Translations under genes and position numbers: made by a program
Part shown: positions 3,313 through 57,020 of the stretch, piece by piece
Numbering within the stretch: position 1 is the first letter of the stretch
Layout of the letters: every line of letters begins with the position of its first letter
Notes under the pieces: model-generated
What the model was told of the DNA's origin: nothing
What the model saw: only the letters and a program-made list of their open reading frames with translations
Databases searched by the model: none
Assembly (NCBI GenBank): GCA_043228905.1
Contig: JBHGNT010000006.1
Span: 19,840,001-19,904,000 of the forward strand
Source of the DNA: Azolla caroliniana
Taxonomy: Eukaryota; Plantae; Polypodiophyta
Reading direction: 5' to 3'
Length of the DNA: 64,000 nucleotides

Positions 3313-3588
3313 TCTGAGTTTGAGCCTCGTCCATTGACTTTTTTCCTATTCCCGATGCTCCACTTCAAACCCTTGTTGTTCTGATCCACCCAAATTCTTT
3401 TACTAGTCCATCAAAACTAGTATTGCTCTCCTCTTTAAGGGCAAAAGTTTGGGAATTATATTCATGTAAAATCTCATTGCCCAACAGGTCATAACTAATA
3501 TGTATGGGTTTAATGATGCTAGTGATTGTTTTGAATTGATGGTATGATCTTTTCTTACATGACCCATTGCTTCTTATTCAGAATAATT

Positions 3589-30089: not shown

Positions 30090-30547
30090 CGAACAATTAG
30101 TTCTTTCAATATCTTCATTGCTAGTTAGTTCATCCTCTTTGCTGTAAAAAGTAACGTGCGGAAGCAAATATGAAGACCGAACAGAAGGAAGGAAACTCAG
30201 GTTCAATGGAGAGCTTGAGCTTAAACGGTATACGTGGGAGAGACAGAGAGAGTGAACTCAAAAAACTATATTCAACAATAATACTCAATCTGTACATAAG
30301 ACGTGCTCAGTGAGCACTTTTATACAAGTCCTAAAAGGACTGACCGAAGTACTGACAGTACTTCAATGCTCATCAAGAGCTCCTACACTAACTCCCAAAT
30401 ATATTCCTCACGGAATATCTTTCCTAACGGCCTCCCGGTTTATGCACTCGGCCTAACCGATTGGTCCCAACCGATCCGGTCCTCAGCTTCTTCAGCCGAT
30501 CCGGCCGATGTTGAGCTTGTCTCTCAACACTCCCCCTCAAGCTCAAC

Positions 30548-31642
30548 TCAAGGCTCTTCGGGATCCTCGGGCTCATAGCTCCGGTTCCTCCTAGCTTCAC
30601 GCCTCGCTCGCGCTCCTCGACCTGTTCGACTCCGCGCGCTTCGACCCTTCCGGTCGGCTTGTTTGCTCATGTGGCCCTCATCAGCTCTTCTGTCGTTGCG
30701 GTGTTGACGCTTCTTCTGCTGCCTTTTCTTCCGCTTGGGCCTCGGTTGATTCAGCGTGTCTGAATCAAACATACGAACCGACTCGGCTACCTCCGATCGG
30801 TCTTCGCTCTCATCCGAGTTGGCTGTCTCCAACTCGTCTTCGGTCTTCTCGCCCTCGATGGCGTCATCCTCCTCATGCGTGGTTGGCTTCGGCTCTCTCC
30901 TTCGGTTGCTCCCCTTCTGTCTGCTTCCGAACTTTTCCGCGGGTTCGCCCTCGGCTTCTTCAGCCGATCTGATGTCGAACTTGTCAACCGACTCGGTGTC
31001 GCGGTGTCCGCTCCTTTCCTGCTGCCTTGCTTGGTCGTTCGGGACTGTTCTCCCCCTCAAGTTCGGCACGTCAAGGTGACGCAACTCGAGCGCACCTGAG
31101 AATTGCCGCAACTTGTCCAGACCAAGTGGCTTGGTGAAGATGTCGGCAGCCTGCCGATCCGTCGGAACATACTGAAGTTTGACTTCACCGGAAAGGACAC
31201 GCTCACGGACGAAATGGTAGTGCACCTCAATGTGCTTGGTCCGTGCATGGAAAACAGGGTTTTTCGCGAGCTGGATGCTGCTGAGGTTGTCGCAGTAGAT
31301 CGTCGTCGGATCGGACACCTCCTCTTGCAGGTCCTTAAGTAGCCGCTTCAACCATATGGCTTCGCATGTCGCGACAGCCGCTCCTCGGTACTCTGCTTCG
31401 GTGCTCGACAGTGCAACTGTCGGTTGCTTCTTACTTCTCCATGCGATCGCGGCACTCCCGAGGGAGAACGCGTATCCGGACGTGGATCGGCGATCGGCGG
31501 CGTTGCCAGCCCAATCAGCATCGGTGTAGCCGACTAACCGCGTGGCTGCACCGGTCCGATATAGCAGTCCCCGGTCCTTAGTGCCGTTGACATACCAAAG
31601 TATGCGTTGTGCACACTGAAGGTGCTCCTCGGTAGGTCGCGC
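30548..31642 (-). pseudogene. Element C pol 3' part: RT end, RNase H and about 170-aa charged C-terminal extension
   Basis: IYCDNLSSIQLAKNPVFHARTKHIEVHYHFVRE and ADIFTKPL motifs; frame stays open to 30548. Confidence 0.85.
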
Positions 31643-31777
31643 TGTCGGGGTAGTTGTGGTTCGTGCGGCAAAGTCGCGGGGACTAAGGTTAAGGGGAGTT
31701 GAAGAAACTTAAGTTTAATAAGGCTTGTATGGTGATGATAGAATGGTTAAGGATAGTAAGATGAAGAGTTACAAGTA

Positions 31778-31822
<45 letters not shown>

Positions 31823-32024
31823 CGAGAGAGAGACGAGCATAGATAAAAGATAGAGACAATGTATGATTCAAGAAAGAAGATTGAGACAAAGTATGATTCT
31901 AGAAAGAAGATCGAGACAAAGTATGATTCAAAGAACAAGAGTATATGATATAAACATGATGTATATTAAAAATATAATATTTTACCAACTTTACAATCCT
32001 TGATCGCAAGATGAATCTTTTCAA

Positions 32025-32097
32025 TACCGACCCTTGATTTGAACCCTCGACCTCAACTTCGAAACGAGAGGTTCTCCACCCAATGAGCTAGTCTTCT
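32025..32097 (-). promoter_or_regulatory. tRNA-like Pol III A/B-box module in G1 3' LTR (element sense); twin at 44123-44199
   Basis: Minus strand TAGCTCATTGG ... GGTTCAAATC with tRNA-like spacing. Confidence 0.55.
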
Positions 32098-32794
32098 TCA
32101 ATTGATTGTATTATTTTTTTCACTCTCTCTTGATTCCTTCATTCCCTTTTGTTTTCCTTTCCCCTCTTTTTATAAGTATTTCCATGCATATGGTAATGTC
32201 ATGCATGTAATGCATGAGTTACATCTGATGCATGATCGCCATTTGGCGCACATGCATTGCATGTGATGCATGATAGCCATCATGCTCATTTGAGCTCCCA
32301 TGTATTGGGATAAGTATAATGATGGATATAACCGTATGTTATATATAGGGCTCGGCCACAACCGAGAAATAGGATTAACTTTCAGAAAACAGGAATTACA
32401 AAATACACGAAGATAATGGGGAGAAGAGTACACAGGATATTTTACGTGGAAAACCCTAAGTGGGAAAAACCACGGGAGTCCTCAAACTCCAACTATCACT
32501 ATATGCAGAGATGTACAATGATGAAGCTACAAGGCAACAACCTTGAGCTCACTGTCTTCGCCACAGGCGGCGGTAATACACTGAGGCAACGACCTCTTCG
32601 TCTCTCTCTCTCTCTCTCTCTCTCTCGCGGCTGCTCTCACTTCGCCTAAAAATGAGCAACAACATAAAACTGTTTGCCCTAAGTCATATTTATACACATA
32701 TGACTTTCGGGCTATTTACAAATATAGCCTCAAGGGGCCCTTGGCAAACATATTCACAAATATGTCCCCGCATCCGGATCTCTCTCCGGGTACA

Positions 32795-32990
32795 TTCGTC
32801 ATCCGGCTCCGTAACCGGGGTCTTCGTCATCCGGCTCCGTAACCGGGGTCTTCGTCATCCGGCTCCGTAACCGGGGTCTTCGTCATCCGGCTCCGTAACC
32901 GGGGTCTTCGTCATCTGGCTCCGTAACCGGGGTCTTCGTCATCCGGCTCCGTAACCGGGGTCTTCATCATCCGGCTCCGTAACCGGGGTC
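32795..32990 (-). repeat. 28-bp tandem repeat x7 in U3 of element E (twin array 37711-37893)
   Basis: Unit TTCGTCATCCGGCTCCGTAACCGGGGTC. Confidence 0.92.
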
Positions 32991-33141
32991 TTCATCATCC
33001 GGATCCGTATCCGGGTACTCTTCATCCGGCTTCATGCCGGGTACTCTTCATCGTCTGGTTCCGTAACCGCAACCGGGCTTGCCGTTATTCATCTTCGGAC
33101 ATCCCATCCGGAGGGACCGTAAATCCCAACAAACTCCCCCT

Positions 33142-36100
33142 TCACTTCGGCATGGGATGTCTCTCCAATCCGATCCTCTTCCGGCATGCTTCCAGCTTGT
33201 CGGGTGTAAGTACCTTGGTCAGCATATCCGACCCGTTCTCGTCCGTGTGGATCTTCGTCAGCACGAACTCCTTGTCTTCTATCCTTTCCCGGATCCAGTG
33301 ATATCTTCGCTGGATGTGCTTCGTCCGGGAGTGATAGGCCGCGTTCTTCGCAAGGTGGATGGCACTCTGACTGTCGCAGTAGAGTCGGTACTCCTCTTGC
33401 CGTATTCCGAGCTCTCTAATGAAGTCCTTCATCCATATTATTTCCTTGGCGGCTTCAACAGCCGCCATGTACTCCGCCTCTGTGGTTGACAACGCAACCG
33501 TCTTCTGCAGCCTCGACTGCCACGAAACAGCTCCCCCTCCATACGTCATCACATACCCTGATGTGGACCGGCTGGTATCTGCATCAGCCGACATATCAGA
33601 ATCAGTAAAGCCGTCGAGTTCGGGCTTACCGGAGCCGAATCGGAGGCACACGTTTGCCGTGCCCTTCAGGTATCGGAGTATCCACTTGGCCGCGTTCCAA
33701 TGCTCTCTGCCGGGATTGCTCATGTACCGGCTCACCACTCCGACTGCATATCCTATGTCCGGTCTCGTACACACCATGGCGTACATCAAGCTCCCGACGG
33801 CTGAGGCATACGGCACTTCCATCATATCCTCCTTTTCAGCCTTTGTCTTGGGACTTTGCTTGCTGGTCAGCTTGCAGTTTGCCGGGAGGGTCGATCCGAC
33901 CGGTCTTGCTTCCGACATGTTGAACCGTTGAAGCACCTTTGTCACGTACTTCTCCTGTGACAGCCACAACTGCTTCTTCTTCCGGTCCCGGATGATGTGC
34001 ATCCCTAGTATTTGCCTCGCCGGACCCAGGTCCTTCATTGAGAAGGTTCGGTGAAGCGCTTTCTTCAGCGCCCGTATCTTGACCTGGTCCCGTCCGACGA
34101 TCAACATGTCGTCCACGTACAGGAGGAGTATTAGAGAGTCTCCTCCTTCGAACTTCTTCACAAACACGCAGTGGTCGGACTGCGTTTTGAGGTACCCTTC
34201 GTCGGTCATGAAGGAGTCAAACTTTCGGTACCATTGCCGGGGAGCCTGCTTTAGTCCGTAAAGGCTCTTCTTCAACCGGCATACCAGGTGCTCCTTCCCT
34301 TTCTTCTCGAATCCTTCCGGTTGCTGCATGTAGATCTCTTCTTCGAGGTCACCGTGAAGGAATGCCGTCTTCACGTCCATCTGTTCTACCTCGAGGTCCA
34401 TGCTTGCCGCTATGCTCAGCACCGTCCGGATGGAGGTCATCTTCACTACCGGGGCAAATATCTCGTCGAAGTCGACGCCCTTCTTCTGCTGGAACCCCTT
34501 CACCACGATCCTGGCTTTGTATCTCGGGGGGTTTCCGGCATCTCCCGGTTTCAGCTTGAACACCCACTTGTTTCGAAGTGCCCGCTTTCCTTTCGGCAAC
34601 TCCACAAGTTCATATGTGTGGTTCTCATGCAGGGAATCCATCTCATCCTGCATGGCACTCAACCACCTGCGGCTCTGGGTGTCGTGCTTTGCTTCTTCAA
34701 AGCTCTCCGGCTCCCCCTCGTCGGTTAGCAGCACGTGCTCTGGTTCCGGAAATCTCCGGGGGGCCCTTCTCTCTCTTAGAGGATATCTCCTTTCCGGAGC
34801 TTCAGTAACCGGTTCTTCCGATTCTTCTTCATCCGAATCAATTTCGGGATCGGGGCCGGTTCCGGTATTATTTTCATCTTCTTCGGCCGGTTCTGTTTCT
34901 TCACCGTCTTCGGCCGGATCCTCGAGTGCTAACCGGTCTCTTGCCGGTCGGGACTGCTCCTCGTAGAGTTGATCCTCACCGGTCGACTTGGAGCTCTTCA
35001 TCTTCTTCTCCGACTCCCAGTCGGCGAGTGTCTTGTCCTCCATGAAGATGATATCTCGACTCCTGAATATCTTCTTGTCGACCGGGTCCCATACTCGGTA
35101 GCCGAACTCGTCGTCGCCGTAACCGAGGAATATGCATTGCCGGGTCTTTGGATCTAGCTTTCCTCTCCGGTCCTTTGCCACATGCACGTATGCGAGACAC
35201 CCGAACACTTTCAGATGCCGGTAGGACACTTCCTTACCGGTCCACACTTTCTGCGGCGTGTCTCCGTCCAAAGGTACTGAGGGTGATCTGTTTATCACGT
35301 ATGTCGCCGTCGACATTGCCTCAGCCCAAAACCCCTTGGGTAATTTCGCATGCGCCAGCATACTCCGGACCCTCTCCATTATGGTCCGGTTCATCCTCTC
35401 GGCCAGCCCGTTCAGTTCCGGCGTCTTCGGCACAGTAAACTCGAGCCGGATTCCCTTCGAGCGACAGTACTCCTGGAACTGCCCCCGGTATTCCCCTCCG
35501 TTATCCGCTCGTATCGCTTTCAGCTTCTTGCCGGATTCCCTTTCCACTCTCGCGTGGAGTTCTTTGAAGACGGACAATACTTGGTCCTTTGTCTTCAACG
35601 GTGCCGTCCACAGTCTTCGGCTGTGATCATCTATGAATGTTACGAAGTACTGGGCTCTGCCATGTGACTTCGTTTCTACCTGACACACGTCGGTGTGCAC
35701 CAACTCCAATGGTGCGCTACGTCTCGTCGGTGGCCTTGAGTGGAAGGAGGTTCGGTTCTGCTTACCGGCCAGGCAATCGGTGCACTTCTCCAGGTGCACA
35801 TGCTTCACTGGGATAAGGTTGTCTTCTGCAAGCCTCTTCATCCCCTTCTCACTCATGTGACACAGTCTTTTGTGCCACAGCTCACCGGCAGTGTCGGCTG
35901 CCACATTCAGCTCTTCCGGACATAACCGGGCATTCATCAGGTACAGTGTGTTGTCTTTCCGGGCCCGAGCCACTATCAGGCTCCCTTTGCTGAACTTCAT
36001 GACACCATTCCGGATGCTACCCGTGTAGCCTTCATCATCTAGCCTCCCGGCCGAGATCAGGTTCAATCGGACCTCCGGAACGTGTCGCACATCTTTCAGC

Positions 36101-37215
36101 AGCATCTTGCATCCGATTGATGTCATCAGCCACACGTCTCCTATGCCGGCAATCCGGCACGTACCTTCATTTCCCATCCGGACACAGCCATGCTCACCGG
36201 CTGTGTAGGATGAGAAGTATTTCTTCTCCGGGGTCAGGTGGAACGACGCTCCGGAATCGACCACCCAGGTCATCTCTACACCGGCAAGGTTCAGCTCCCT
36301 CTCTTCGGTAATGAGCATTATCTCTTCTTCACTTGCCGCGAGTGCCGTCGTTCCTTTCCGGTCCTGCCCTCGCCGATCCGAACCTCTCCGGTCCGTGGCT
36401 CCCCGGTATGCACCGTTTCTCTCCGGTGATTTCTTCGAATCGGTGTCGTCGACTCCGTTGTCTTTTCGGTAATGCCGACAATTCTTCCGGAAGTGCCCCG
36501 GCTTCCCACAGTGGAAGCATGTTGGCCTTCCTCTTGACTGCGACCGGGTTCCCGACTTCTCCCGTCTTTGCGGACTCCGGTTCCACTGTCTTCCCCGTTC
36601 TGATTCGGTAAGCAGCGCCTTCGAGTCGGAGGCCGGTTCTTTATCTCTCCGACGCGCTTCTTCGTTCAAAATACTTGTCTTTACCGTTTGTAGAGACAAG
36701 TTATCTTCGGTGCAGGAGGTGCTGAGAGTCACCACCAAGTTCTCCCAGCTGTCCGGCAATGTACACATCAGGATGATGGCTTGCATTGCATCCTCCAACG
36801 GGAACTTGATCGCCGCAAGCTGGTTCACGAATCCCATGAACGTGCTTACGTGTTCCACCATATTCTCGCCGTCCCGGTACTTGAGGTTCACTATCTTCCT
36901 CATCAGGGAGGTCCGGTTCAACGCATTCTTCCTCTCATAGAGGCCCGACAGCTTCTTCCACATCTCATAGGCGTTCGTATCGTTCGCCACATGTTGCAGG
37001 ACACTTACATCGACATATTGCCGGATCGTCGCTACGGCTTTCCGGTTCAGGAGCTTCCACTCCGACTCTATTACCCCCTTGGGTATCTCGGCATTGTCGA
37101 TCGGTTCGTATAGATCTCGGACGATGAGAAGGTCTTCCATCTTTATCTTCCAGTCGGCGTAGTTCTGTGAGTTCAACACCATCATGCCCGGAGGCCCACT
37201 ACCGCCGCCTTCCAT
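33142..37215 (-). CDS. Copia Gag-Pol polyprotein (1357 aa, intact)
   Basis: CCHC knuckle CFHCGKPGHFRKNC, protease WVVDSGAS, integrase DDE, RT YVDD, RNase H. Confidence 0.96.
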   Translation of the reverse strand: MEGGGSGPPGMMVLNSQNYADWKIKMEDLLIVRDLYEPIDNAEIPKGVIESEWKLLNRKAVATIRQYVDVSVLQHVANDTNAYEMWKKLSGLYERKNALNRTSLMRKIVNLKYRDGENMVEHVSTFMGFVNQLAAIKFPLEDAMQAIILMCTLPDSWENLVVTLSTSCTEDNLSLQTVKTSILNEEARRRDKEPASDSKALLTESERGRQWNRSPQRREKSGTRSQSRGRPTCFHCGKPGHFRKNCRHYRKDNGVDDTDSKKSPERNGAYRGATDRRGSDRRGQDRKGTTALAASEEEIMLITEERELNLAGVEMTWVVDSGASFHLTPEKKYFSSYTAGEHGCVRMGNEGTCRIAGIGDVWLMTSIGCKMLLKDVRHVPEVRLNLISAGRLDDEGYTGSIRNGVMKFSKGSLIVARARKDNTLYLMNARLCPEELNVAADTAGELWHKRLCHMSEKGMKRLAEDNLIPVKHVHLEKCTDCLAGKQNRTSFHSRPPTRRSAPLELVHTDVCQVETKSHGRAQYFVTFIDDHSRRLWTAPLKTKDQVLSVFKELHARVERESGKKLKAIRADNGGEYRGQFQEYCRSKGIRLEFTVPKTPELNGLAERMNRTIMERVRSMLAHAKLPKGFWAEAMSTATYVINRSPSVPLDGDTPQKVWTGKEVSYRHLKVFGCLAYVHVAKDRRGKLDPKTRQCIFLGYGDDEFGYRVWDPVDKKIFRSRDIIFMEDKTLADWESEKKMKSSKSTGEDQLYEEQSRPARDRLALEDPAEDGEETEPAEEDENNTGTGPDPEIDSDEEESEEPVTEAPERRYPLRERRAPRRFPEPEHVLLTDEGEPESFEEAKHDTQSRRWLSAMQDEMDSLHENHTYELVELPKGKRALRNKWVFKLKPGDAGNPPRYKARIVVKGFQQKKGVDFDEIFAPVVKMTSIRTVLSIAASMDLEVEQMDVKTAFLHGDLEEEIYMQQPEGFEKKGKEHLVCRLKKSLYGLKQAPRQWYRKFDSFMTDEGYLKTQSDHCVFVKKFEGGDSLILLLYVDDMLIVGRDQVKIRALKKALHRTFSMKDLGPARQILGMHIIRDRKKKQLWLSQEKYVTKVLQRFNMSEARPVGSTLPANCKLTSKQSPKTKAEKEDMMEVPYASAVGSLMYAMVCTRPDIGYAVGVVSRYMSNPGREHWNAAKWILRYLKGTANVCLRFGSGKPELDGFTDSDMSADADTSRSTSGYVMTYGGGAVSWQSRLQKTVALSTTEAEYMAAVEAAKEIIWMKDFIRELGIRQEEYRLYCDSQSAIHLAKNAAYHSRTKHIQRRYHWIRERIEDKEFVLTKIHTDENGSDMLTKVLTPDKLEACRKRIGLERHPMPK

Positions 37216-37509
37216 TTTCTGTGTTACCGTTGCTCTGATACCAGTTTGTTATATATAGGGCTCGGCCACAACCGAGAAATAGGATTAACTTTCAGAAAAC
37301 AGGAATTACAAAATACACGAAGATAATGGGGAGAAGAGTACACAGGATATTTTACGTGGAAAACCCTAAGTGGGAAAAACCACGGGAGTCCTCAAACTCC
37401 AACTATCACTATATGCAGAGATGTACAATGATGAAGCTACAAGGCAACAACCTTGAGCTCACTGTCTTCGCCACAGGCGGCGGTAATACACTGAGGCAAC
37501 GACCTCTTC

Positions 37510-37544
<35 letters not shown>

Positions 37545-38044
37545 GGTTGCTCTCACTTCGCCTAAAAATGAGCAACAACATAAAACTGTTTGCCCTAAGT
37601 CATATTTATACACATATGACTTTCGGGCTATTTACAAATATAGCCTCAAGGGGCCCTTGGCAAACATATTCACAAATATGTCCCCGCATCCGGATCTCTC
37701 TCCGGGTACATTCGTCATCCGGCTCCGTAACCGGGGTCTTCGTCATCCGGCTCCGTAACCGGGGTCTTCGTCATCCGGCTCCGTAACCGGGGTCTTCGTC
37801 ATCCGGCTCCGTAACCGGGGTCTTCGGGACCGGGGTCTTCGTCATCCGGCTCCGTAACCGGGGTCTTCATCATCCGGCTCCGTAACCGGGGTCTTCATCA
37901 TCCGGATCCGTATCCGGGTACTCTTCATCCGGCTTCATGCCGGGTACTCTTCATCGTCTGGTTCCGTAACCGCAACCGGGCTTGCCGTTATTCATCTTCG
38001 GACATCCCATCCGGAGGGACCGTAAATCCCAACACCGTAAAACA

Positions 38045-38250
38045 AATAACCTAGCTTAGTGGTGTATGGTTTGTGCTTGATATACAAGGTTGAGGGTTCA
38101 AGTCCCTCAATTTTACTTAATACAATATATAGCTTCATTCTTATATCATGAAGCACATTTATTACACACTTTTACAAATAAATAGCCTAGCCTAGTGGTA
38201 TGTACATTGTACATCGTATATAAGGATGTGGCTTCAAGTCTCTCAAATAT
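38045..38250 (+). promoter_or_regulatory. Two tandem tRNA-like A/B-box modules (136-bp period) in G1 3' LTR, antisense to the element
   Basis: A boxes TAGCTTAGTGG (38052) and TAGCCTAGTGG (38188); perfect T-arm GAGGG-TTCAAGT-CCCTC in unit 1. Confidence 0.65.
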
Positions 38251-38298
38251 TATTAAATACAACATTTAAGCTCATTTTTATATCGTGATGCACATTCT

Positions 38299-41200
38299 TC
38301 ACGACACCCACCCCCTCTGAACTTGCACATTGGTTGTGCAGAGTTCGTCCAACACTTCTTCCGATTCTTTTAGTTCTTCTACTTCTTCATAAAATTCAGG
38401 CTCTAATGACTCCCTCCTTTTAAATATTTTAATCCTTTTTCCTGCAATTGGGATACGAATTTCTGTCCCATCTAATTCATTGAGGAAATATGTGGCTTTA
38501 TCTGTTATTTTCCTAACTTCATAAGGTCCAAACCATCTTTTTGCAAACTTCCGAATAGTACTGTATTGATTATCTAGGCTATTATCATATACTAATACCC
38601 AATCTCCCTCTTGCACCTTTCTTGGTCGTATTCTTTTCATCTTGTCAAATCTGTCCTTATTCTTGATTCTTGCCTCTTTCAATCTAGTAGCTACTTTTTC
38701 TATGTCTTCTATCCTTGATTGAAGTTGTCGTATTCGAACCGCAAGTAAATCTTCCCTACTCATTTCCGATTCCCAAGGCAACACAGCCCATGTAGTTATC
38801 TTTTCTTCAATTGGCATTATTGGCTTCTGTCCTGTGATTAATTCTGCAGGCATATATCCAGTAACAGTGCTGTGAGTTGTCCTATCAGCCCATAGTGCAT
38901 AGGGTAAGGTTTTTGGCCAATCACTAACCCGTCCTCTACATGCCTTTGCCAAAGCTTTGACTATTGGCCCATGTCCCCTTTCTACCTTTCCATTAGCTTC
39001 TGGATTGTACGCCGTTGTCAAAGAAAGCCGAATTCCTATTTTGTCGAAAAAATCTTGAGCTTCCGCAGAATTGAGTTCTCCCCTATCTGCCACTATCTTC
39101 CCGATACATCCATATCTACAAACAATGTCCTCCAAGATGAATTGACATACTCCTAATGTCCCTTTTGTTCTCAATGAACGACCTTCCACTTGATTTGTTA
39201 GATCTTCTCTAGCAAGAACCAAGTATCTCTTTTGTCCTACTCCAAGTGGCATTGTTACCAAATCTATCATCCACTTGTAATGCACCCCCGGTGAGTATGT
39301 TGGGTGTAATTCATCACAAAATTTTACATTTGAATAATATTGACAAGTGGGACAAGTTTCCACATACTTTTTTATTTGCTCATAGTATCGAGGCCACCAA
39401 AATCGTTCTTTAATCTTACTGAAAGTGGCCCACACTCTTCGATGACCAGCCCATTCTTTGTCATGCAGCTCTTTGATTATCTCCTTTCTTTGCCCTTCAG
39501 AACCTATTACTCTTTGCGGGTTTCCAGTCTTGGTTTTCGGATGTCGCCATAGATATCCTTCATGCAGGAAGAACTTATGGGCTTTCTTGCGAAACTGTGC
39601 GAACTCTTTTCCAGATCGACCTTTGTACTTGTCAGGGGTTTGTAGGTATTTCCCTATTTCCTTGAATTCTTCTTCATACTCCTCTTCTAGAAACTGCATT
39701 CCTCCTTCCCGAGTAATGCTTGTGGTAAGGACTGTTTGTTCTTTGTCCTCATCGTCCGAGTCTGGAATCTCCTCTTCCTCATACCTTGCTCTTGATAACA
39801 TATCTGCTACTGCATTTCTATTCCCAGAGATATGTCGAACTTCAGGGTTGATTGATCTAATATAGATACACCATCTTAACATGGCTTGATCTGGATACCT
39901 TTCTTCCCTATCTTGTTGGCTTATCACCCATCCAATTCCAATGGGACTAGAGTCTACTGTGAGATATATGGGTCGGGTGTAGTCTGGTTGCTTTAATGGT
40001 GGAGCTTGTGCCAAGTAGTACTTCAATTTCTTCATTGCCTCTGAATGCTCTTCACTCCATTCAAATGTCTCTCCTTTTCTCAGGAGTCTATATAAAGGTT
40101 CAGATAAATGGGCATAATGCGGAATCCATTTACAGTAAAAAACACATACCCCCAGAAACCTTCGTACTTCTGAGATGGATGTACATTCCTCTTGCATATT
40201 TTGAATTGCATTGACCTTGGTTGGGGATGGCTTTCTCCCATACGGGCCACACATATGACCAACTATTAATATCTCTTTTGACCCAAATATTGACTTCGCC
40301 CCTGATAAGGTCAAATGCACTTCTTCCATCCTTGATAGCACCTTCTCACAATCCTTGATATGATCAGCAACGAATTGACGGAAACCACTTTCGTCCAATT
40401 CCTCGTTCTTCTCTTCCTCCTTGCATCCCTTAATTGGAACATCATCTAGAAAAGGCATTGTAATATGAGGAATAAAATCACGAAGTACCTTGTTCATTCC
40501 ATTCATCATCTACGCCACTGAGTTGGTCGCTCCTTGCGGCAAGGTGCACATCCGTACTAACCCTATAGGTGTCTTGATAGAAGTTATATCTCGACTTTTG
40601 ATAGCAAGTTGAAATTGATCATACCCGGAATAAAGGTCTCCCATTGAATATATAGCTCTTCCTGCAAACATCTCAGCAAACTCATCCACAATTGGCCCTA
40701 CTCCCGAGTTTCGGATTGTTACCTTATTCACGGGTTGCATATCTTAGATAAATCGGAGTCGCCCATCTTTCTTTAACACAGTGAACCATCGACTCGAGTA
40801 AGGAGCGTTCAATGGTTCCAAGATACCCATCCTTATCTTTTCTTTCAAAAGTTCTAATAGTTGAGGGATTCTAGCCCTAGGCATGGGTATTGGCTTAAAG
40901 TTCCATGGAATATGAGGGATAGTGAATATAACCATGGGCTCCACAATTTCTGGATCCACACACCCTATTTCTTCCGGTTGGAATGCCAACGCCTTTCCAT
41001 GCCTTTTTAACATCTCCCTGAACTGCTTTTCTTCAACGGGTAATAGGAAGTCACCCCCTCCTATTTTCATCCCTTGTATTGTTTCCGGAGTAAACACATG
41101 TCCTACCTTTCGTGGGTCTCTGATCATTGGCTCTGTGGCTGCTTCTTTGATTGCCTTTTCACTATCCCCTGGAAGTGGAGCAGCAATAGGACGAACCTTC

Positions 41201-41583
41201 TTCTCCACTGTCTTGTACTTTGTTAGTACATGTGCTTCATGATCCTTTCGAGCAACTTCTTCAATGACCTCATACATCTTGATTGAATGGATAGGAACTT
41301 GGATTTCGTTGTCTTCTTCCATTGCTTCCAAATGAGTTATTGTATCTTCAAAACTTAATTCTTCAAACATATCCTGAATTTCTTCATCATCATCTATTAA
41401 TCCAGAACACTTAAAGTACTCGAAAGCATTTTGTATTTTATTATTATTTACTTTTAGTATAAAAGTAGCACCATTAGATGAGATTGTACAAGGAATATCT
41501 TTATTTACATTATTATTTATGGGGTTTTCTTTTATGCTCGAGCTATCACAGCCCCTACCTGTAAAAGCCCTATCTAAAAATCC
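38299..41583 (-). pseudogene. G1 pol (RT, internally deleted RNase H, integrase) in the -1 frame relative to gag-PR
   Basis: ORF pieces 40744-41370, 40510-40740 and 38299-40509 in one frame separated by single stops; DLYSGYDQ, LPQGATNS, FLDD, HHCC, YNPEANGKVER and GPY motifs. Confidence 0.88.
41519..41583 (-). promoter_or_regulatory. Putative -1 programmed ribosomal frameshift signal (G GAT TTT plus pseudoknot)
   Basis: Slippery heptamer 41583-41577 immediately before the gag-PR stop, 6-nt spacer, 12-bp stem, loop GGGG complementary to downstream CCCC; -1 frame open into pol. Confidence 0.7.
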
Positions 41584-43688
41584 TGGGAAAACACTTCATC
41601 CATCTCTTGAATTGGATGTTCCCTCAAGCATTCTTTGTTTCTTTCATGGTTGGGTCTCACGGTTAAGAATTGGACAATCTTTCTTCCATCTTGACTTTTG
41701 ATTCTCGCGAAAGCCGAACCATCATCAATAACCTTTGTTTCCATCCTCACTGCGGTGATGTAGGGCTAGCCAAGGATGACGGGGTAGGTTGATCGATCCT
41801 GCACAAAGAAATTTTGATTCACCGAGACATCACCAATTGTTACCTTCACACTAGGACATGCTCCGAATAGATCCTCCGTAGTTTCTGTGGCAGCTCTTAT
41901 TTTCCACCCATGATTCTTGTCGATCGGCCATCGTCCTCGAGCGTAAAATTCCGATGACATCATGTTAATCTCTGATCCATGATCGATCAAAGCAATACAT
42001 GGAATTTGCTGCTCCCCAATTTTTGCAGGTGCCTCCGTTGTTGCTCGAGCCCAATGGTCCCTTGTATAGTGACTCCTATCCCCTTCATGGACGCCAACAT
42101 CATTCTGGTTTTTTACACTTGCAGCATTGATGGTGCCACCATACAAATCTTGGAGTGTTGCTGCACACCCTCCCGTAATTTCCTCCGTCACCTGTCTCTT
42201 CCTTCTAATAATATCTATGATAACTTCATGAAATTCTTTCTTTGCTATACCCAACACTTCTCTTAAAGTAAATTCTACCTTAATATTTAATATTCTTGTT
42301 TCTAGTACCTTTTTTATATCCGTCGTTGTTTCTATGTCTGAGGCAAGCTTGAAAGATGGGCCTGTCTTTCCTTTTACTTTATCAGCTTCCTTCGGCTCAA
42401 TAGCACCCTTTTCCATCTCCCTTCTCTTTTGTTCTCGTGTCTCATGTCTCTTTGTCGGATCAGCTTCCTCAACTCTCTTCCGCTTCTCTTCCACTAGCAC
42501 ATCTTGTGCATTCACTTGGGCGAATGCTGATAGCGCGTCTACTGGATCATTCCATCCAGTGAAGTTTCGTATTTCATCTCCCGCTCTTTTTAATTCATCC
42601 ACTCGAACCTTCCCTTTTCTTGCATAATCCATCACATCTTGCCAAAAGCCAGATCCACCATATGAGTCTTCTACGCGCAATCCTAAGGTTGCCACGGATT
42701 GTATCGCTTGAGTCGTTTCTCTCTCGGCATCTTCCATTAGCCTTTTCATTCCTCCTCGCCCGAAGTTGAGTTGAAGTGGTTGTCGAGTCTCAGTTGAGTG
42801 AATCTTGCCATCTTGATAATAGATTTTATTATGATTAAGAGCATCCCTATGCTCTTGACAATCTTTCTTCTGGTGGTCGATACTATCACACCACATACAC
42901 CTTCGGACCATTCCACCTCCCTGCCTTGATGAAGTCGAGCTTTGTCCCGATTCTAGCTTCGTCACTTTGATCGACAAGTCTTTCATGCCTTTCACTAATT
43001 CGTGTAAGAGTGATTCTTCTACTTTCTTTTCTCCCGACTCATTCCCCATTTCTTCATCATTTCTGTCGGGCAACTCCATAAACCATAACTTTCTTTTGCA
43101 GAAATGGGTGCACGTCCTTTTCACCTCCTCCCAGTCTTCGGTAAGTCCACTTGGACTGTTCTGATCTTCTAAAAGCATTCCCAAGTCCTTCCTGTCTTTA
43201 ATATTAGTAGCTTGTAGAAACAATATGACTTTATCTGGCACTATTATATTTCTATCTCTAACATTTAGTTGCTCAAATCTTTCAGAAAACTCTTTTAATA
43301 CTTCCAAAACACTTAAATGTTTATTAGACTCTACCCAATCCATGAAGGCTCGCCTTGTCATCCTTGACATATCGTTGAGGTTGTATTCATTTAGCAATGC
43401 TCTTTCAAAAGTCACCCATGTCTGATGTTCCCTTTGTAGCTCCTGGATCCTTTCTTGTAGCCCAATCGCAGCGACTCGACTAAAGCTATTAATTTTTGCA
43501 GCTTCGTCAACACCGCGTTTAAGCATTTCTTCATTATAAATCTTCAGAAATCTTGTTAAATTTATACCTTCGAAGATTCCTACTCGTGCGAGAATATTGT
43601 CGACGGCTTTGTCGATGCTTGCCATCATCCCTTGTTCTCGCATCACTCGTTCCATCATCCTACACATAAGCCTCATTTGCTCCTCCAT
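41574..43688 (-). pseudogene. G1 gag-protease ORF (one premature TAG at 41766-41768; natural stop 41574-41576)
   Basis: CMWCDSIDHQKKDC knuckle, ALIDHGSEIN aspartic protease; frame continues past the TAG to ...SQDF*. Confidence 0.88.
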
Positions 43689-43706
43689 TTGCTCCTTGTC
43701 GCCGCC

Positions 43707-43724
43707 TTCACGTCGGGTTCACCA
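43707..43724 (-). promoter_or_regulatory. Primer-binding site complementary to the tRNA-Trp 3' end
   Basis: TGGTGAACCCGACGTGAA 4 nt inside the 5' LTR; matches the plant cytosolic tRNA-Trp end ...TTCACGTCGGGTTCACCA (recalled from memory). Confidence 0.82.
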
Positions 43725-43863
43725 AATGTGTCAGGGTAGTTGTGGTTCGTGCGGCGAAGTCGCGGGGACTAAGGTTAAGGGGAGTTGAAGAAACTTAAGT
43801 TTAATAAGGCTTGTATGGTGATGATAGAATGGTTAAGGATAGTAAGATGAAGAGTTGCAAGTA

Positions 43864-43920
<57 letters not shown>

Positions 43921-44443
43921 CGAGAGAGAGACGAGCATAGATAAAAGATAGAGACAATGTATGATTCAAGAAAGAAGATTGAGACAAAGTATGATTCTAG
44001 AAAGAAGATCGAGACAAAGTATGATTCAAAGAACAAGAGTATATGATATAAACATGATGTATATTAAAAATATAATATTTTACCAACTTTACAATCCTTG
44101 ATCGCAAGATGAATCTTTTCAATACCGACCCTTGATTTGAACCCTCGACCTCAACTTCGAAACGAGAGGTTTCTTATCCACCCAATGAGCTAGTCTTCTT
44201 CAATTGATTGTATTATTTTTTTCACTCTCTCTTGATTCCTTCATTCCCTTTTGTTTTCCTTTCCCCTCTTTTTATAAGTATTTCCATGCATATGGTAATG
44301 TCATGCATGTAATGCATGAGTTACATCTGATGCATGATCGCCATTTGGCGCACATGCATTGCATGTGATGCATGATAGCCATCATGCTCATTTGAGCTCC
44401 CATGTATTGGGATAAGTATAATGATGGATATAACTGTAAAACA

Positions 44444-44650
44444 AATAACCTAGCTTAGTGGTGTATGGTTTGTGCTTGATATACAAGGTTGAGGGTTCAA
44501 GTCCCTCAATTTTACTTAATACAATATATAGCTTCATTCTTATATCATGAAGCACATTTATTACACACTTTTACAAATAAATAGCCTAGCCTAGTGGTAT
44601 GTACATTGTACATCGTATATAAGGATGTGGCTTCAAGTCTCTCAAATATT
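44444..44650 (+). promoter_or_regulatory. Two tandem tRNA-like A/B-box modules in G1 5' LTR U3
   Basis: A box 44451-44461, stem-loop TTGTG-CTTGATA-TACAA 44470-44486, T-arm 44491-44507, then TTTT; second unit A box 44587-44597. Confidence 0.65.
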
Positions 44651-44709
44651 ATTAAATACAACATTTAAGCTCATTTTTATATCGTGAAGCACATTCTTCA
44701 CGACAGCGC

Positions 44710-47700
44710 CATGAACTGATTGATCACCCCGACCGGATAACTGAGGTCGGGTCGGGTGATGGTCAAGTATATAAGGCTTCCGACAATTTGTCAGAACCTC
44801 GTCGGGTCGCATACCTTTCCCGTATCGGGACGAAGCTTGACGGTTCTGTCCAGAGGAGTTGAGATGGACTTACAATCGGCCATCCCGAATTTGAAGAGCA
44901 TACTCAGCACGTAATGACGTTGGCTGATCAATATGCCTTCGGGGGTACGGACCACTTCGATCCCAAGGAAGTAATGAAGGTCCCCTAGATCCTTCATGTC
45001 GAACGATGCCGCAAGTTGGAGCTTCACGCAGTCGATTTCACCTAGGTCGGCGTCGGTGATGACCAAGTCATCAACATACAGTAAAATACTAACCGGTCCG
45101 AGTCGACCTTTCCGGATGAACAGGGAAGAGTCCGATTTTGACGTGACGAAGCCCATCCGACGCAGTTGTTGCATGATCTTCGCGTTCCAGGCACGCGGGG
45201 CTTGCTTCAGTCCGTAAAGGGACTTCTTCAGTCGGCATACTGCCGAGGAGTTCGTTCCAGAGTGAAATCCGGGGGGCTGTACCATGTACACCTGTTCCTC
45301 AAGGTCACCTTGCAGGAACGCATTCTTTACATCCATCTTATGTAAGTGCCACCCCTTCGCCGCAGCTACTGCCCACAAAACACGGACGGTCGTCATTTTC
45401 GCGACCGGCGCAAACATCTCATCGTAGTCGATGCTGTGTTTCTGTGCGTAGCCCTTTGCCACTAGCCGAGCCTTGTACCGGTTGACCGAGCTATCGGTGT
45501 TGTACTTGACCTTGTACACCCACCTACACCCGATCGGCTTCACAGCTCTTGGTGCGTCAACCAGGTCCCAGGTCCCGTTCTCCGCCAATGCGTGCATCTC
45601 TTCCTCCGTCGCGGCACGCCAATTCGCGTTTTTAGCCGCTTCTGCGTAGCTCTCCGGCTCACGCACTTCCGCTACACGGGTCATGTACGCATAATGATGC
45701 GCCATGTACTCGTTGTATCCGAACCGCACAACTGAGTTCTTTTGGCGGGTAGATCGGCGTAATCTCACATTAGCCGATGTCGAGGCCTTCTCGATCGACG
45801 CGGTCTTCATCTTTAAAGACCTGTCACCAGTTCCCTCGGAGTCGAACTTGCGTCGGTCTGACTCGTTCCTTTCCGTGCCGGAATCCGACACCTTCTTCTT
45901 CCCTTTCTCTTTGCGCGTAAGCCATCTCCTCGGCTTCCTGCGCGGGGAATGCACGGCCGAGTCTCCACTACTCGCCGGCTCTTCATCGGACTGGTCGTAC
46001 CGACTCAGTCGTCCAATCGGTCCACTTAACCGGAGTGAAATCGGACTCTCTTCGCGAGTCTCGATTTCGGGCTCATCCGGAGGCATCTCGGCCTCGCTGA
46101 CCTCATCGTCAGAGCTCGGATTGGAGTCGAGGTTCGTAGTCGGGGGCAGGTACCAAGACGCGGACTCGTCAAACACAACATCGCGGTTGACACGCGCTTG
46201 TTTGGTGCGAGGGTTATAGCACTTATAACCCTTCTGCTCGTCCGAGTAATCAACCAAGATGCATTTCTCGGCCTTTGCGTCCAGCTTCCTCCTTTTCTCC
46301 TTCGGTACATGCACATACGCAATGCTACCAAACACCCTCAAGTGTCGCAAGTTCGGCTTCGTTCCGAAATATAGCTCGTGCGCCGACACTTTGTCTCCGA
46401 TCCGGTTCTGGATGTATACCGTGGTCCTTACCGCCTCGGCCCAATAGAACTTGGGCAAGCTCTTCTCCTCCAGCATTGCCCGTGCCGCTTCCACAACTGA
46501 CCGATTCTTTCTCTCAGCCACGCCGGTCTGCTCTGGCGTGTATCCACAACTGAATTCGCGGCGAATTCCCATTTGTTGTAGGTAACCGTTGAATTGACCG
46601 GAAAAGTACTCTTTCCCGCCATCCGACCGCAGGCACTTGATCTTTCGTCCCGTTTCGGTTTCCACGAACCCTTTGAGGTCCCGGAAATAGTCGAAGACTT
46701 CGCTCTTCCTCTCAATGAGGTAGATCCACGTGTGCCGCGTGTGGTCGTCGATGAAGGAGACGAAATATCGGCTCCCGCCAAGACTAACGTTTTGTGCCGG
46801 CCCCCACACATCCGAGTGTATAAGGTCAAGCTTGTTCCGGCTCCGGTTTCGCTCGTTGGGGAAAGGAAGTCGGTGTTGCTTCCCGAGCTGGCAGGCTTCA
46901 CAAATTTGTGCCTTTCAGCCACTAAACTTGGGCAATCCGAACACTACCTGTTTCGATTGCAGATCTTGAAGCCGCTGGTGGTTGACGTGGCCTATCCGCT
47001 TGTGCCACAAGTCGATGTCTGACTCGGTCTTTTGTCCCTTTGCGAACATTGCGGTGCCGCCGTCAGTGGAGTCGAGGATGAACATCCTCCCGTCTCTGCG
47101 CCCTTGCGCAATCACACGGCTTCTTCCTCAATGAAGCACCCGAGGTGTGTAAACCGAACCTCCATCCCTTGGTCGATGATCTGTCCGACCGAGACCAAGT
47201 TCTTCGTGATTGTCGGAACGTGCAGCACGTTCATGAGTTTCCCTTTCTGCCCGACATGGCTAAGGGGAACTTCTCCGACATTTGCGATCGGATGCGGAGT
47301 GTCGTCTCCAGTTGCGACTACTCCAGGTTGTATCGGTTTTTCAAGGTACGAGAACCACTCCTTATGGCTCGTCATGTGGTTTGACGCGCCGGAGTCTATG
47401 TACCACACCTCGTCCGATCTCGGGGTGTTCTGTTTCATTGAGTTTGCTTCGTGTCTCGTCACGAAGACAGACCCTTCTCCGGCTCTCCCGGAGTCTTCGG
47501 CGTAGTGTGATCGTTGCCGATTTCCCTTGTCGGTATGTCTGGAGCCGTTCCCGGAACCAGTTCTCTCCGAATCGGCGCGCTTCTTCCAGCACTCACTTTC
47601 CCTGTGGCCTTTCTTGCCACAGTACCAACACTCCTCGATGGACTTCCCTTGCCGGTTCTCATCGCTTCGACTCCCCCTGTTTCCGGAGGGTCCGGAGTTG

Positions 47701-48416
47701 TTGTCGGTATCACTTCAGTGCCTTCTTTCTTGATCTCGTCGGCCGCCTCCATTGCGTGCCAACTCGCCTCGTCCTCCACGTCCACGGGGCCTATCTCCCT
47801 TAGTGTATAGCATTCTGTTGTCGGTGTGCGTGCTTGTAGACGCACCCGCGTGGTTCTCCTCTACCAGGAGCATCGACTGTAAGTCGAAAAAGGACGGCGT
47901 ATTCTCCCGGGTACACATAGCCATTCGGAACGCTCCGAACTTCGACGCCAAACCTCCGAGACAGATCTGGACCATCTCGCTCTCCTCAATGTTCACCTCT
48001 ATGGAGGCAAGGGAGTTGCAGATATCCTTGATCTTCGAGGTATAGTCCGCCACCGACAAGTCGCGTTGTCGTAGGTTGCTCAACTCCTGTCGGAGCTGAA
48101 GCTTCCTAGCTGTGGTGCTCGCGGCGAAGATCTTCTTCAGATTTTCCCACGCACCCTTCGGCGTCTTTGCATCCCGAACATAGCTCAATAGCTGTTCGCC
48201 CACACACGACGTGAAGCAGTATAATACCCTGCTCGCCGATTGCTCCCACGACGGGAAGTCTCTGTGTGTCGATTCGGGTGCCGCGTCATTAGCTCCTTCG
48301 ACATAACTCCAGTAGTCGTGCCCGAGCAGGTACTGGTGCATCTTGTAGGACCAAGACGCGTAGTTGGTTCTGTCGAGCTTCTCTGTTGGAAGCGAGCTCG
48401 CCATGCCTCTATCCAT
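44710..48416 (-). pseudogene. Element C gag-pol 5' part (gag, protease, integrase, RT) with several stops and frameshifts
   Basis: ORF pieces 47715-48416, 47112-47462 (WYIDSGASNHM) and 44791-46809 (integrase, RT LLYVDD). Confidence 0.88.
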
Positions 48417-48959
48417 CGTTCTTCTCGTTCTTCTTCGTCAAGCTGTGTCGGCTGCAGAGAGGTTCTCAACCCTCGCGCTCTAATACCATGTAAAAAGTAA
48501 CGTGCGAAAGCAAGTATGAAGACCGAACAGAAGGAAGGAAACTCAGGTTCAATGGAGAGCTTGAGCTTAAATGGTATACGCGGGAGACACAGAGAGAGTG
48601 AACTCAAAAAACAATATTCAACAATAATACTCAATCTGTACATAAGACGTGCTCAGTGAGCACTTTTATACAAGTCCTAAAAGGACTGACCGAAGTACTG
48701 ACAGTACTTCAATGCTCATCAAGAGCTCCTACACTAACTCCCAAATATATTCCTCACGGAATATCTTTCCTAACGGCCTCCCGGTTTATGCACTCGGCTT
48801 AACCAATCGGTCCCAACCGATCCGGTCCTCGGCTTCTTCAGCCGATCCGGCCGATGTTGAGCTTGTCTCTCAACATACCTCAATCGAGAAGACAAAGTAC
48901 ATTGCCTTAAAAAGAAACTACAGTTTGTGGAAGGAATGGTAAGAATAAAACAAGAATAC

Positions 48960-56130: not shown

Positions 56131-57020
56131 TGTCGTGAAAATACGACAAAGACACATGAACTTGAGGCAGGACCCTAGGGCCTCCGACCAAAGGATACCA
56201 AATTCGTGCGTTTGTATTAAAAAATTAACGAAAATGAGAAAGTTTGGTAAATTTCATCAGCAAAGAAAAAGAAAAATTACAATCTATCCCAAGATTGGGA
56301 TTTTAGAAGTTTAGGCTTAAAGAGATTAATAGATAAGAAAAATTAGAGTTTTTGAGAGATATGGCTTCCGTAAGGAAAATTAGGGTTTATGCGAGAGATG
56401 GCTTCGATAAGAAAAAAGAATAGGGTTAGCCTTTTTCATGATAGCTTTTTCCTTCCCTTCGTCTCTCTCCTTTTCTCACCCAGTTGCATCCGTCCACACA
56501 TGACATTTACTTTAATTGCATGGCCTCTACGTTCAGTTGCATGCGTCCACACATGACCTTTACTTTAGTTGCATAGGCTCTACGTTCAGTTGCATGTATC
56601 CACACATGACCTTTACTTTAATTGCATGGCCTCTACATTCAATTGCATGCGTCCACACATGACCGTTACTTTAGTTGCATAGCCTCTACGTTCAGTTGCA
56701 TACGTCCACACATGACCGTTACTTTAGTTAAAAAACATAAAGTTCGGCCCGTGCATGATCCGTACGATCGTCCCGACCGATCCGTGTGTCCCGACCGACC
56801 CGTGATCGACCCGTGCGTCGCGACCGATCCATGCGTCCCGTTCCGGACGTTCCAAAACCGTTTCGAGCAATTCATCCACACTCGTCTATCTAGGTAGTTC
56901 GACCCAAATCACCTTGATTGTTTTGTGCTCCAAACACACAGATATGAAGTAATAGGTTCTAGGTCTTCTCATATATTGTTGGATCCGATGTTTTTCATAT
57001 CGTGTGTGAAGAATCACACA
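56131..57020. mobile_element. Solo LTR (Gypsy lineage) in G2 gag
   Basis: TGTCGTGAA...CACACA termini; 4-bp TSD ACGA/ACGG; removal rejoins the gag GLT-x-DWA segment. Confidence 0.75.
56481..56728. repeat. 53-bp tandem repeat, about 4.7 units, inside the solo LTR
   Basis: Unit CAGTTGCATGCGTCCACACATGACCTTTACTTTAGTTGCATAGGCTCTACGTT at 56481, 56534, 56587, 56640 and 56693. Confidence 0.88.

Follow-up and report, generated by a model that had tools for sequence, protein, structure and literature searches.

tRNA-Type A and B Boxes in the LTRs of Azolla Gypsy Retrotransposons as Possible TFIIIC Docking Sites beside a Pol II Promoter

LTRs of autonomous Gypsy retrotransposons in the genome of Azolla caroliniana carry units with tRNA-type A and B boxes. 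The units are real, span lineages, and are probably selected. Judging from sequence, the boxes were likely captured from SINE or tRNA heads and are likely kept by selection at the level of the element as a DNA dock for TFIIIC that would hold the Pol II promoter open, a reading to which we give about an even chance.

Results

Element G1 and its surroundings

The window, i.e., the whole analysed stretch of 64,000 nt, belongs to a genome of 523 Mb and is filled with nested retroelements. An old Copia (30143-48875) contains the Gypsy element designated as G1 (31643-44705, minus strand), and a second Copia (32337-38034) lies in the 3' LTR of G1 (Table 1). This copy of G1 is broken; most full-length copies exceed it in length by 179 nt. 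Elements of the G1 family are 7.5 kb long, with an internal region of about 5.6 kb coding for gag of about 710 aa (DUF4100) and pol of about 1156 aa (RT, RNase H, and integrase). Ten full-length relatives of G1 were fetched; their LTR pairs differ at 0-15 sites, both the gag (DUF4100) and pol frames are open in seven of them, and matching 4-bp NCGN duplications flank nine, one being mismatched. No Chromo match was obtained in a domain search of the gag and pol ORFs of the family. A preference for insertion at NCGN is described as a hallmark of Phygy (PMC6317226). Because of the NCGN duplications, the open gag and pol frames, and the near-identical LTR pairs, the G1 family is regarded as a young, coding, Phygy-like non-chromovirus, the trees being computed from the fetched elements only. 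An 8-bp inverted repeat is present at the LTR terminus of G1 (44682-44703) as a hairpin at the U3 start. Elsewhere in the window, a 764-aa ORF with hAT dimerisation and zinc-finger matches was found (3535-5829, plus strand), as were tandem repeats with a unit of 28 nt in the Copia LTR (32771-33069) and of 53 nt (56481-56745).

Table 1. Features of element G1 and of its LTR units; positions are those of the window
Feature	Position	Strand	Remarks
G1 5' LTR	43729..44705	-	977 bp, TG..CA
G1 3' LTR, U3-start part with units 1 and 2	38040..38306	-	A boxes 38052, 38188
G1 3' LTR, rest	31643..32336	-	with TATA (32166-32176) and module 3 (32035-32090)
G1 PBS	43708..43724	-	complementary to 3' end of the genome's own tRNA-Trp(CCA)
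G1 internal region	38307..43728	-	gag-like ORF (DUF4100) 41766-43718; pol in pieces (RNase H, integrase 38299-40509)
G1 polypurine tract	38307..38317	-	
G1 target-site duplication GCGC, 4 bp	44706..44709, partner 31639-31642	.	inside pol gene of the older Copia (30143-48875)
Copia inside G1 3' LTR	32337..38034	-	5-bp duplication 32332-32336 / 38035-38039, 13-17 nt upstream of unit-1 A box
G1 5' LTR TATA box (predicted Pol II promoter)	44270..44277	-	174 nt from unit-1 A box; similar position in sister families
CATG/TGCA-rich core between TATA and unit 1	44285..44410 (approximate limits)	.	common to families G1s, I, C
Unit 1	44451..44513	+	A box 44451-44461, B box 44494-44504 (spacing 43), T-hairpin 44491-44507, TTTT 44510-44513; antisense to G1
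Unit 2	44587..44643	+	A box 44587-44597, B box 44630-44640; tandem copy, 136 nt from unit 1
Module 3	44133..44192	-	A box 44182-44192, B box 44133-44143; sense, downstream of TATA

The three A/B-box units of the G1 LTRs

An earlier note on this DNA had described three tRNA-like modules in both G1 LTRs, and all of them are where it had placed them. As G1 lies on the minus strand, units 1 and 2 are antisense to it, and module 3, facing the opposite way, is sense. All three are repeated in the 3' LTR, with A and B boxes at 38052/38095, 38188/38231, and 32080/32035, respectively. Their occurrence is beyond chance in both pattern searches and shuffles. The A..B pattern of unit 1 has 256 matches in the genome versus none for the reversed pattern, and the pattern matches were placed inside G1 LTRs in 30 of 30 cases. 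A scoring matrix trained on 50 tRNA gene types of the same genome gave 29.6, 19.0, and 26.7 for unit 1, unit 2, and module 3, respectively; the maximum of 100 LTR shuffles is 16.9 and the median of true tRNAs is 27.6. The units are rejected as tRNA genes, in agreement with the earlier note, since ARAGORN predicted no tRNA gene at them and the Rfam tRNA model reached 21.2 bits (cut-off 29) while covering its positions 8-63 only. Large tandem clusters of tRNA genes for Lys, Ile-TAT, and Trp (63 Trp-type matches) are located on G000:C5, C8, and C16 (L041, L058, L206-L210, and L228), and a near-complete tRNA-Arg(TCT)-like copy ending with CCA lies beside a divergent Gypsy (L193:4640-4705 and L194:4838-4910).

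Unit 2 had been considered more decayed. Its B box is indeed changed in the window copy, but the change is private to that element, and 26 of 28 LTRs of the family are intact here. Module 3 is optional, having been detected in 13 of 30 loci that were selected through unit 1; its spacing is 49 in the window copy and 45 in 26 of 29 copies, and TTTT follows 62 nt past the B box. A core does lie between the modules, as had been noted, but what was called enhancer-like holds the element's own TATA box, and module 3 is therefore situated downstream of TATA, in the predicted transcribed leader. The tandem antisense duplicate and the optional sense unit of G1 flank the promoter on both sides.

Distribution in two Gypsy lineages

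A search with the Trp PBS gave 1,231 genome matches and revealed sister families A, B, C, E, F, H, I, and G1s. The antisense U3 unit is carried by A, B, C, H, I, and G1s, while E and F are without it. Family I has a second antisense unit and a sense unit besides the first, as in G1. A looser A..B pattern has 2,493 matches, many of them in the self-primed chromovirus K. This family encodes a Chromo domain (E = 3e-14), and its PBS is complementary to LTR position 218, 33 nt past TATA, i.e., to its own R region. From its chromodomain and self-priming PBS, K appears to be a chromovirus, probably of the Tcn1 type. The RT-RNase H identity is 27% between G1-type elements and K, and 69-74% among the module-bearing Phygy-like families. 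At least 2,493 + 812 exact A..B pattern matches exist genome-wide; these are mostly LTR units, with a few other tRNA-like sequences.

Presence of the unit (score of at least 16) was determined in LTR loci that were picked by PBS or PPT alone, blind to the module, and that do not represent independent families. Of the loci defined by the Trp PBS, 34 of 50 have the unit, as do 26 of 30 defined by the chromovirus PPT and none of 30 controls, which were defined by the iMet PBS motif and in which it was sought within 900 nt upstream of the PBS. Every positive locus has the unit antisense and with a spacing of 43-44, except for secondary matches in two overlapping array loci. A TATA-like site was found in 18 of 19 LTRs, always with the A box 112-272 nt upstream of it. 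In 19 of 19 modules, the stretch of 50 nt preceding the A box is more A+T-rich than the LTR. A related family (L365, L367) has its A/B unit in sense orientation in U3, upstream of TATA. At L263-L265 (G000:C1:3016846-3017650), PPT and LTR start form a tandem array with a 354-nt period and a unit in each repeat.

On the integrase tree of the fetched elements, the unit was gained or lost at least five times; L292 was left out of inference because its two LTRs disagree (it is likely chimeric). G1-type units occur also on contigs of three other organisms, and among the matches listed, 40 of 98, the variants of unit 1 fall in the spacer. Metagenome relatives carry the unit in nine of 36 usable related 3' LTR stretches (from 80 loci), where its absence is an upper bound because the contigs are truncated. 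A module lying 1.4 kb upstream of family-B PBSs is not from the B LTR but from family C LTRs that adjoin B elements. Family B is gag-only and non-autonomous, and its LTRs L132 and L134 contain a palindromic B box with A boxes on both sides at 42-43 nt, which is possibly a bidirectional unit.

Conservation of the boxes

Between families, 12 modules show pairwise identity of 0.72 in the A box, 0.80 in the B box, and 0.76 in AGGT preceding the B box, compared with 0.34 in the spacer and 0.34-0.36 in the flanks; these modules, and the cassette sets below, are units that pass the box score, a selection that favours box conservation. The spacing of the 12 units is constant at 43-44 between families. 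When LTRs of families A and C, B and C, and H and C were compared, the module was the only BLAST match, in two cases extending at most about 40 nt into the flank. Four homologous cassette sets have 37 changes in 88 columns of the boxes versus 87 in 104 columns of the spacer (0.42 vs. 0.84 per column, p = 4e-4). In the same sets, TA+AGGT, which is outside the scoring matrix, has six changes in 24 (p = 0.001, chosen post hoc). The position of AGGT is that of the GTC signature in extended tRNA B boxes (PMC3159450). The tandem duplicates within G1 differ at 2 of 22 box positions vs. 29 of 96 others, a trend only (p = 0.058); this is the gapped value, used because ungapped counts for unit 1/unit 2 and flanks are inflated by indels. 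The earlier note had asked whether boxes and stems are better conserved than flanks; between families this holds for the boxes, but the cloverleaf is not conserved.

Within families, no such signal was obtained. In 22 young K copies, conservation of the boxes does not exceed that of spacer plus flank (5/22 vs. 15/51 shared variants, p = 0.81; the power is low), and C56 of the B box is changed to T in three of the 22. Paired LTRs were found for 22 of 40 fetched loci, and 19 pairs were anchored. Their post-insertion transitions are not less frequent in the boxes, with 12 of 213 C/G sites vs. 145 of 2918 (p = 0.63), so that the predicted methylation dip between modules left no trace in this proxy of mutation rate. 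These null results fit selection acting only during replication of master copies, and they also fit neutrality.

Origin of the units

A third A..B pattern with 806 genome matches led to a free tRNA-type SINE (L463-L488, e.g., L465:1487-1700). It is about 200 nt long, has an A-rich tail and target duplications, and resides in GA microsatellites; its 3' half contains a second A/B unit, inverted. Chromovirus family M (L478, L485-L487, L489, and L490), classed from integrase and chromodomain fragments only, has the SINE head antisense at the LTR start, 83-89% alike. The head comprises the SINE 5' end to just past the B box and occupies the same place as the unit of K. Being common to the free SINE and the M LTR, it links the LTR units to SINE heads and points to SINE capture, the data being compatible with either direction of transfer. 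Since the free SINE has target duplications, such heads are likely working Pol III promoters in this genome. The G1 units match both SINE units at only 10-14 of 32 spacer positions and are therefore considered old, older than the SINE-like heads. They gave no match to any SINE or tRNA compared (52 tRNA types, an incomplete set), and none of these types stands out as the donor. Unlike a SINE insertion, they consist of heads only, within LTR sequence, with no body, A-rich tail, or target duplication.

Alternatively, the units could be passengers: heads of SINEs or tRNAs that repeatedly landed in U3 and were spread by cassette swapping, with boxes conserved because those of the donors were. The free SINE with the similar head in one chromovirus LTR family, the patchy distribution of units on the tree, and the lack of within-family and post-insertion conservation are all in line with this. 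However, orientation, position, and exact spacing are equal in the two lineages with 27% RT identity, the boxes exceed the spacer in conservation inside sets that share flanks by descent, the G1 tandem duplicates show the same trend, and unit 1 scores above the median of true tRNAs in spite of the age of the G1 units. We consider the passenger explanation unlikely. Neutrally decaying old SINE insertions, which the earlier note had named as the case against it, are thus partly true as to origin, but the neutral decay is disfavoured.

RNA-level explanations

The units could also be Pol III genes whose short antisense RNAs matter, e.g., as hairpin or small RNAs tuning silencing. Both boxes are kept, not B alone, and TTTT occurs 5-91 nt from the B box in 10 of 12 units. 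Strong private hairpins are predicted in three families (z = -4.0 in C, -3.7 in A146, and -5.6 in K185), and there is a precedent in simian foamy virus (SFV), whose LTR A/B-box units yield miRNAs (PMC3993851). No fold is shared, however. The median z is -1.1 on both strands, with 7 of 24 below -2 on each, and hence no strand-specific folding; control LTR windows fold at least as well. The G1 units fold weakly (z = -1.8, -0.7, and -0.7), and K and B are without a terminator inside the LTR. A conserved cloverleaf was rejected, as pairing amounts to 56.4% versus 57.1% in shuffled sequences with no covariation, and the anticodon stem noted in G1 has a mismatch in another subfamily. Because the boxes are kept and the cloverleaf is lost, the tRNA-mimic RNAs suggested earlier are unsupported. 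An antisense RNA as the function is improbable, about as much so as passengers.

Far less probable is that, when genomic RNA is reverse-transcribed, its antisense tRNA-like sequence pairs with the D and T arms of the primer tRNA. Pairing with primer tRNA arms has reportedly been seen for HIV-1 U3-R, and Ty3 has a bipartite PBS with comparable pairing. The antisense orientation in U3 would fit, and the geometry of the unit is that of tRNA-Trp; however, tRNA-Trp ranks only 3rd to 37th of 52 tRNA types in similarity to the units (30th for unit 1), and the frequent presence of the unit in the self-primed chromovirus, with its PBS complementary to the R region of the element itself, largely refutes this explanation. 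It is equally improbable that the units are mainly landing pads for Pol III-targeting elements: the Copia in the G1 3' LTR was inserted where the SINE 5' end (-13) predicts the Pol III start, but this is a single event, no cluster of breaks at -10 to -20 was found in 78 distinct loci picked by boxes alone, and the iMet-primed elements have no unit within the 900 nt upstream of their PBS.

Discussion

With promoter bases conserved, the fold drifting, and the unit kept in a lineage free of a tRNA primer, the simplest function is at the DNA level. The Pol III/TFIIIC insulators proposed in the earlier note gain indirect support as far as TFIIIC-type boxes are kept beside the promoter, by conservation across unalignable LTRs and in two Gypsy lineages; the RNA half of the proposal does not. 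TFIIIC, once bound to the B box, brings TFIIIB to the DNA upstream of the A box; in yeasts, TFIIIC-only sites function as barriers (PMC3159450). At the LTR units, TFIIIC would likewise bind the B box and place TFIIIB upstream of the A box, which in the antisense orientation would be the A+T-rich side toward the TATA of the LTR, about one nucleosome away. An open patch or barrier formed in this way would help master copies in repeat-rich chromatin to be transcribed by Pol II. Pol III RNA would be a short by-product; unit 1 ends at TTTT, 5 nt past the B box. A more far-reaching version, which we hold as possible but tentative, is that autonomous Gypsy elements of two distant lineages have repeatedly made captured SINE or tRNA heads into portable TFIIIC insulators standing back-to-back with the Pol II promoter. 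Such an element-encoded anti-silencing device would be present at more than 3,000 sites, its U3 cassette being swapped between families.

Several results speak against a function. Presence is patchy (9/36 relatives), E and F are without the unit, and the boxes show neither a signal within families nor reduced C-to-T decay; the unit is dispensable, and one related family has it in sense orientation. Intact boxes do not prevent methylated clusters of tRNA genes from being silent in Arabidopsis (PMC7544208), and by analogy most genomic copies of the unit may be unoccupied under any model.

According to Kojima (PMC10886601), Pol III promoters suit only miniature elements, and autonomous LTR elements must use Pol II. 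The coding elements described here keep Pol III boxes that are unable to make element RNA. If the boxes bind TFIIIC, they would represent a cis-acting resistance of transposons to silencing, and sister families with and without the unit, in either orientation, would offer a natural test of TFIIIC barriers in plants. No demonstration of TFIIIC barriers in plants was found in the literature searched. The scattered A..B copies could also act as competitors for Pol III factors or influence the layout of chromatin domains.

Comparison with known systems

In the Phygy account (Neumann 2019, PMC6317226), features shared with G1 are the NCGN 4-bp duplication and a short element filled by gag-pol; no chromodomain was found in G1. 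Family K resembles Tcn1-type chromoviruses (Novikova 2010, PMC2864245) in chromodomain and self-priming. Taken together, the kinds of element found are suggestive of a non-seed land plant. The available parts of these two accounts mention no tRNA-like LTR units. Likewise, no description of A/B units in autonomous plant LTR/Gypsy elements was found in the open-access literature searched.

The nearest known parallels are Helenus and Cassandra, for composition and origin, and foamy-virus LTR units, for setting. Helenus, Cassandra, and Ajax, TRIMs of the TRIMp3 type, are non-coding elements of 0.3-1.3 kb in which a Pol III promoter for element RNA was shown (Cassandra) or proposed (Helenus, Ajax) (Kojima 2024, PMC10886601). 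As in these TRIMs, tRNA-derived A/B boxes are present in both LTRs, conservation is around the boxes, there is no functional tRNA, and an origin from a SINE inserted into an LTR was proposed there. G1 differs from Helenus and TRIMp3 in being a gag-pol element of 7.5 kb that has a TATA box of its own; up to three units occur per LTR, the main ones antisense and upstream of TATA. The Pol III promoter of Helenus is proposed to make the element RNA, which the G1 units would not, the U3 units being antisense and module 3 optional with its terminator soon after the B box. The same source states that "not a few" Repbase LTRs hold tRNA-like parts, in an analysis limited to TRIMs shorter than 1 kb.

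Simian foamy virus LTRs (PMC3993851) are similar in that A/B-box Pol III units lie inside the LTR of an autonomous retroelement. The SFV units make defined hairpin miRNAs, whereas here there is no cross-family fold, tRNA geometry is kept, and the units face away from the element. Analogues of our working model are ETC sites, chromosome-organizing clamps of S. pombe, and tDNA insulators (PMC3159450), where B-box DNA acts via TFIIIC with no useful RNA, as may be the case at the LTR units. Unlike those fixed host loci, the boxes described here are carried and copied by mobile elements.
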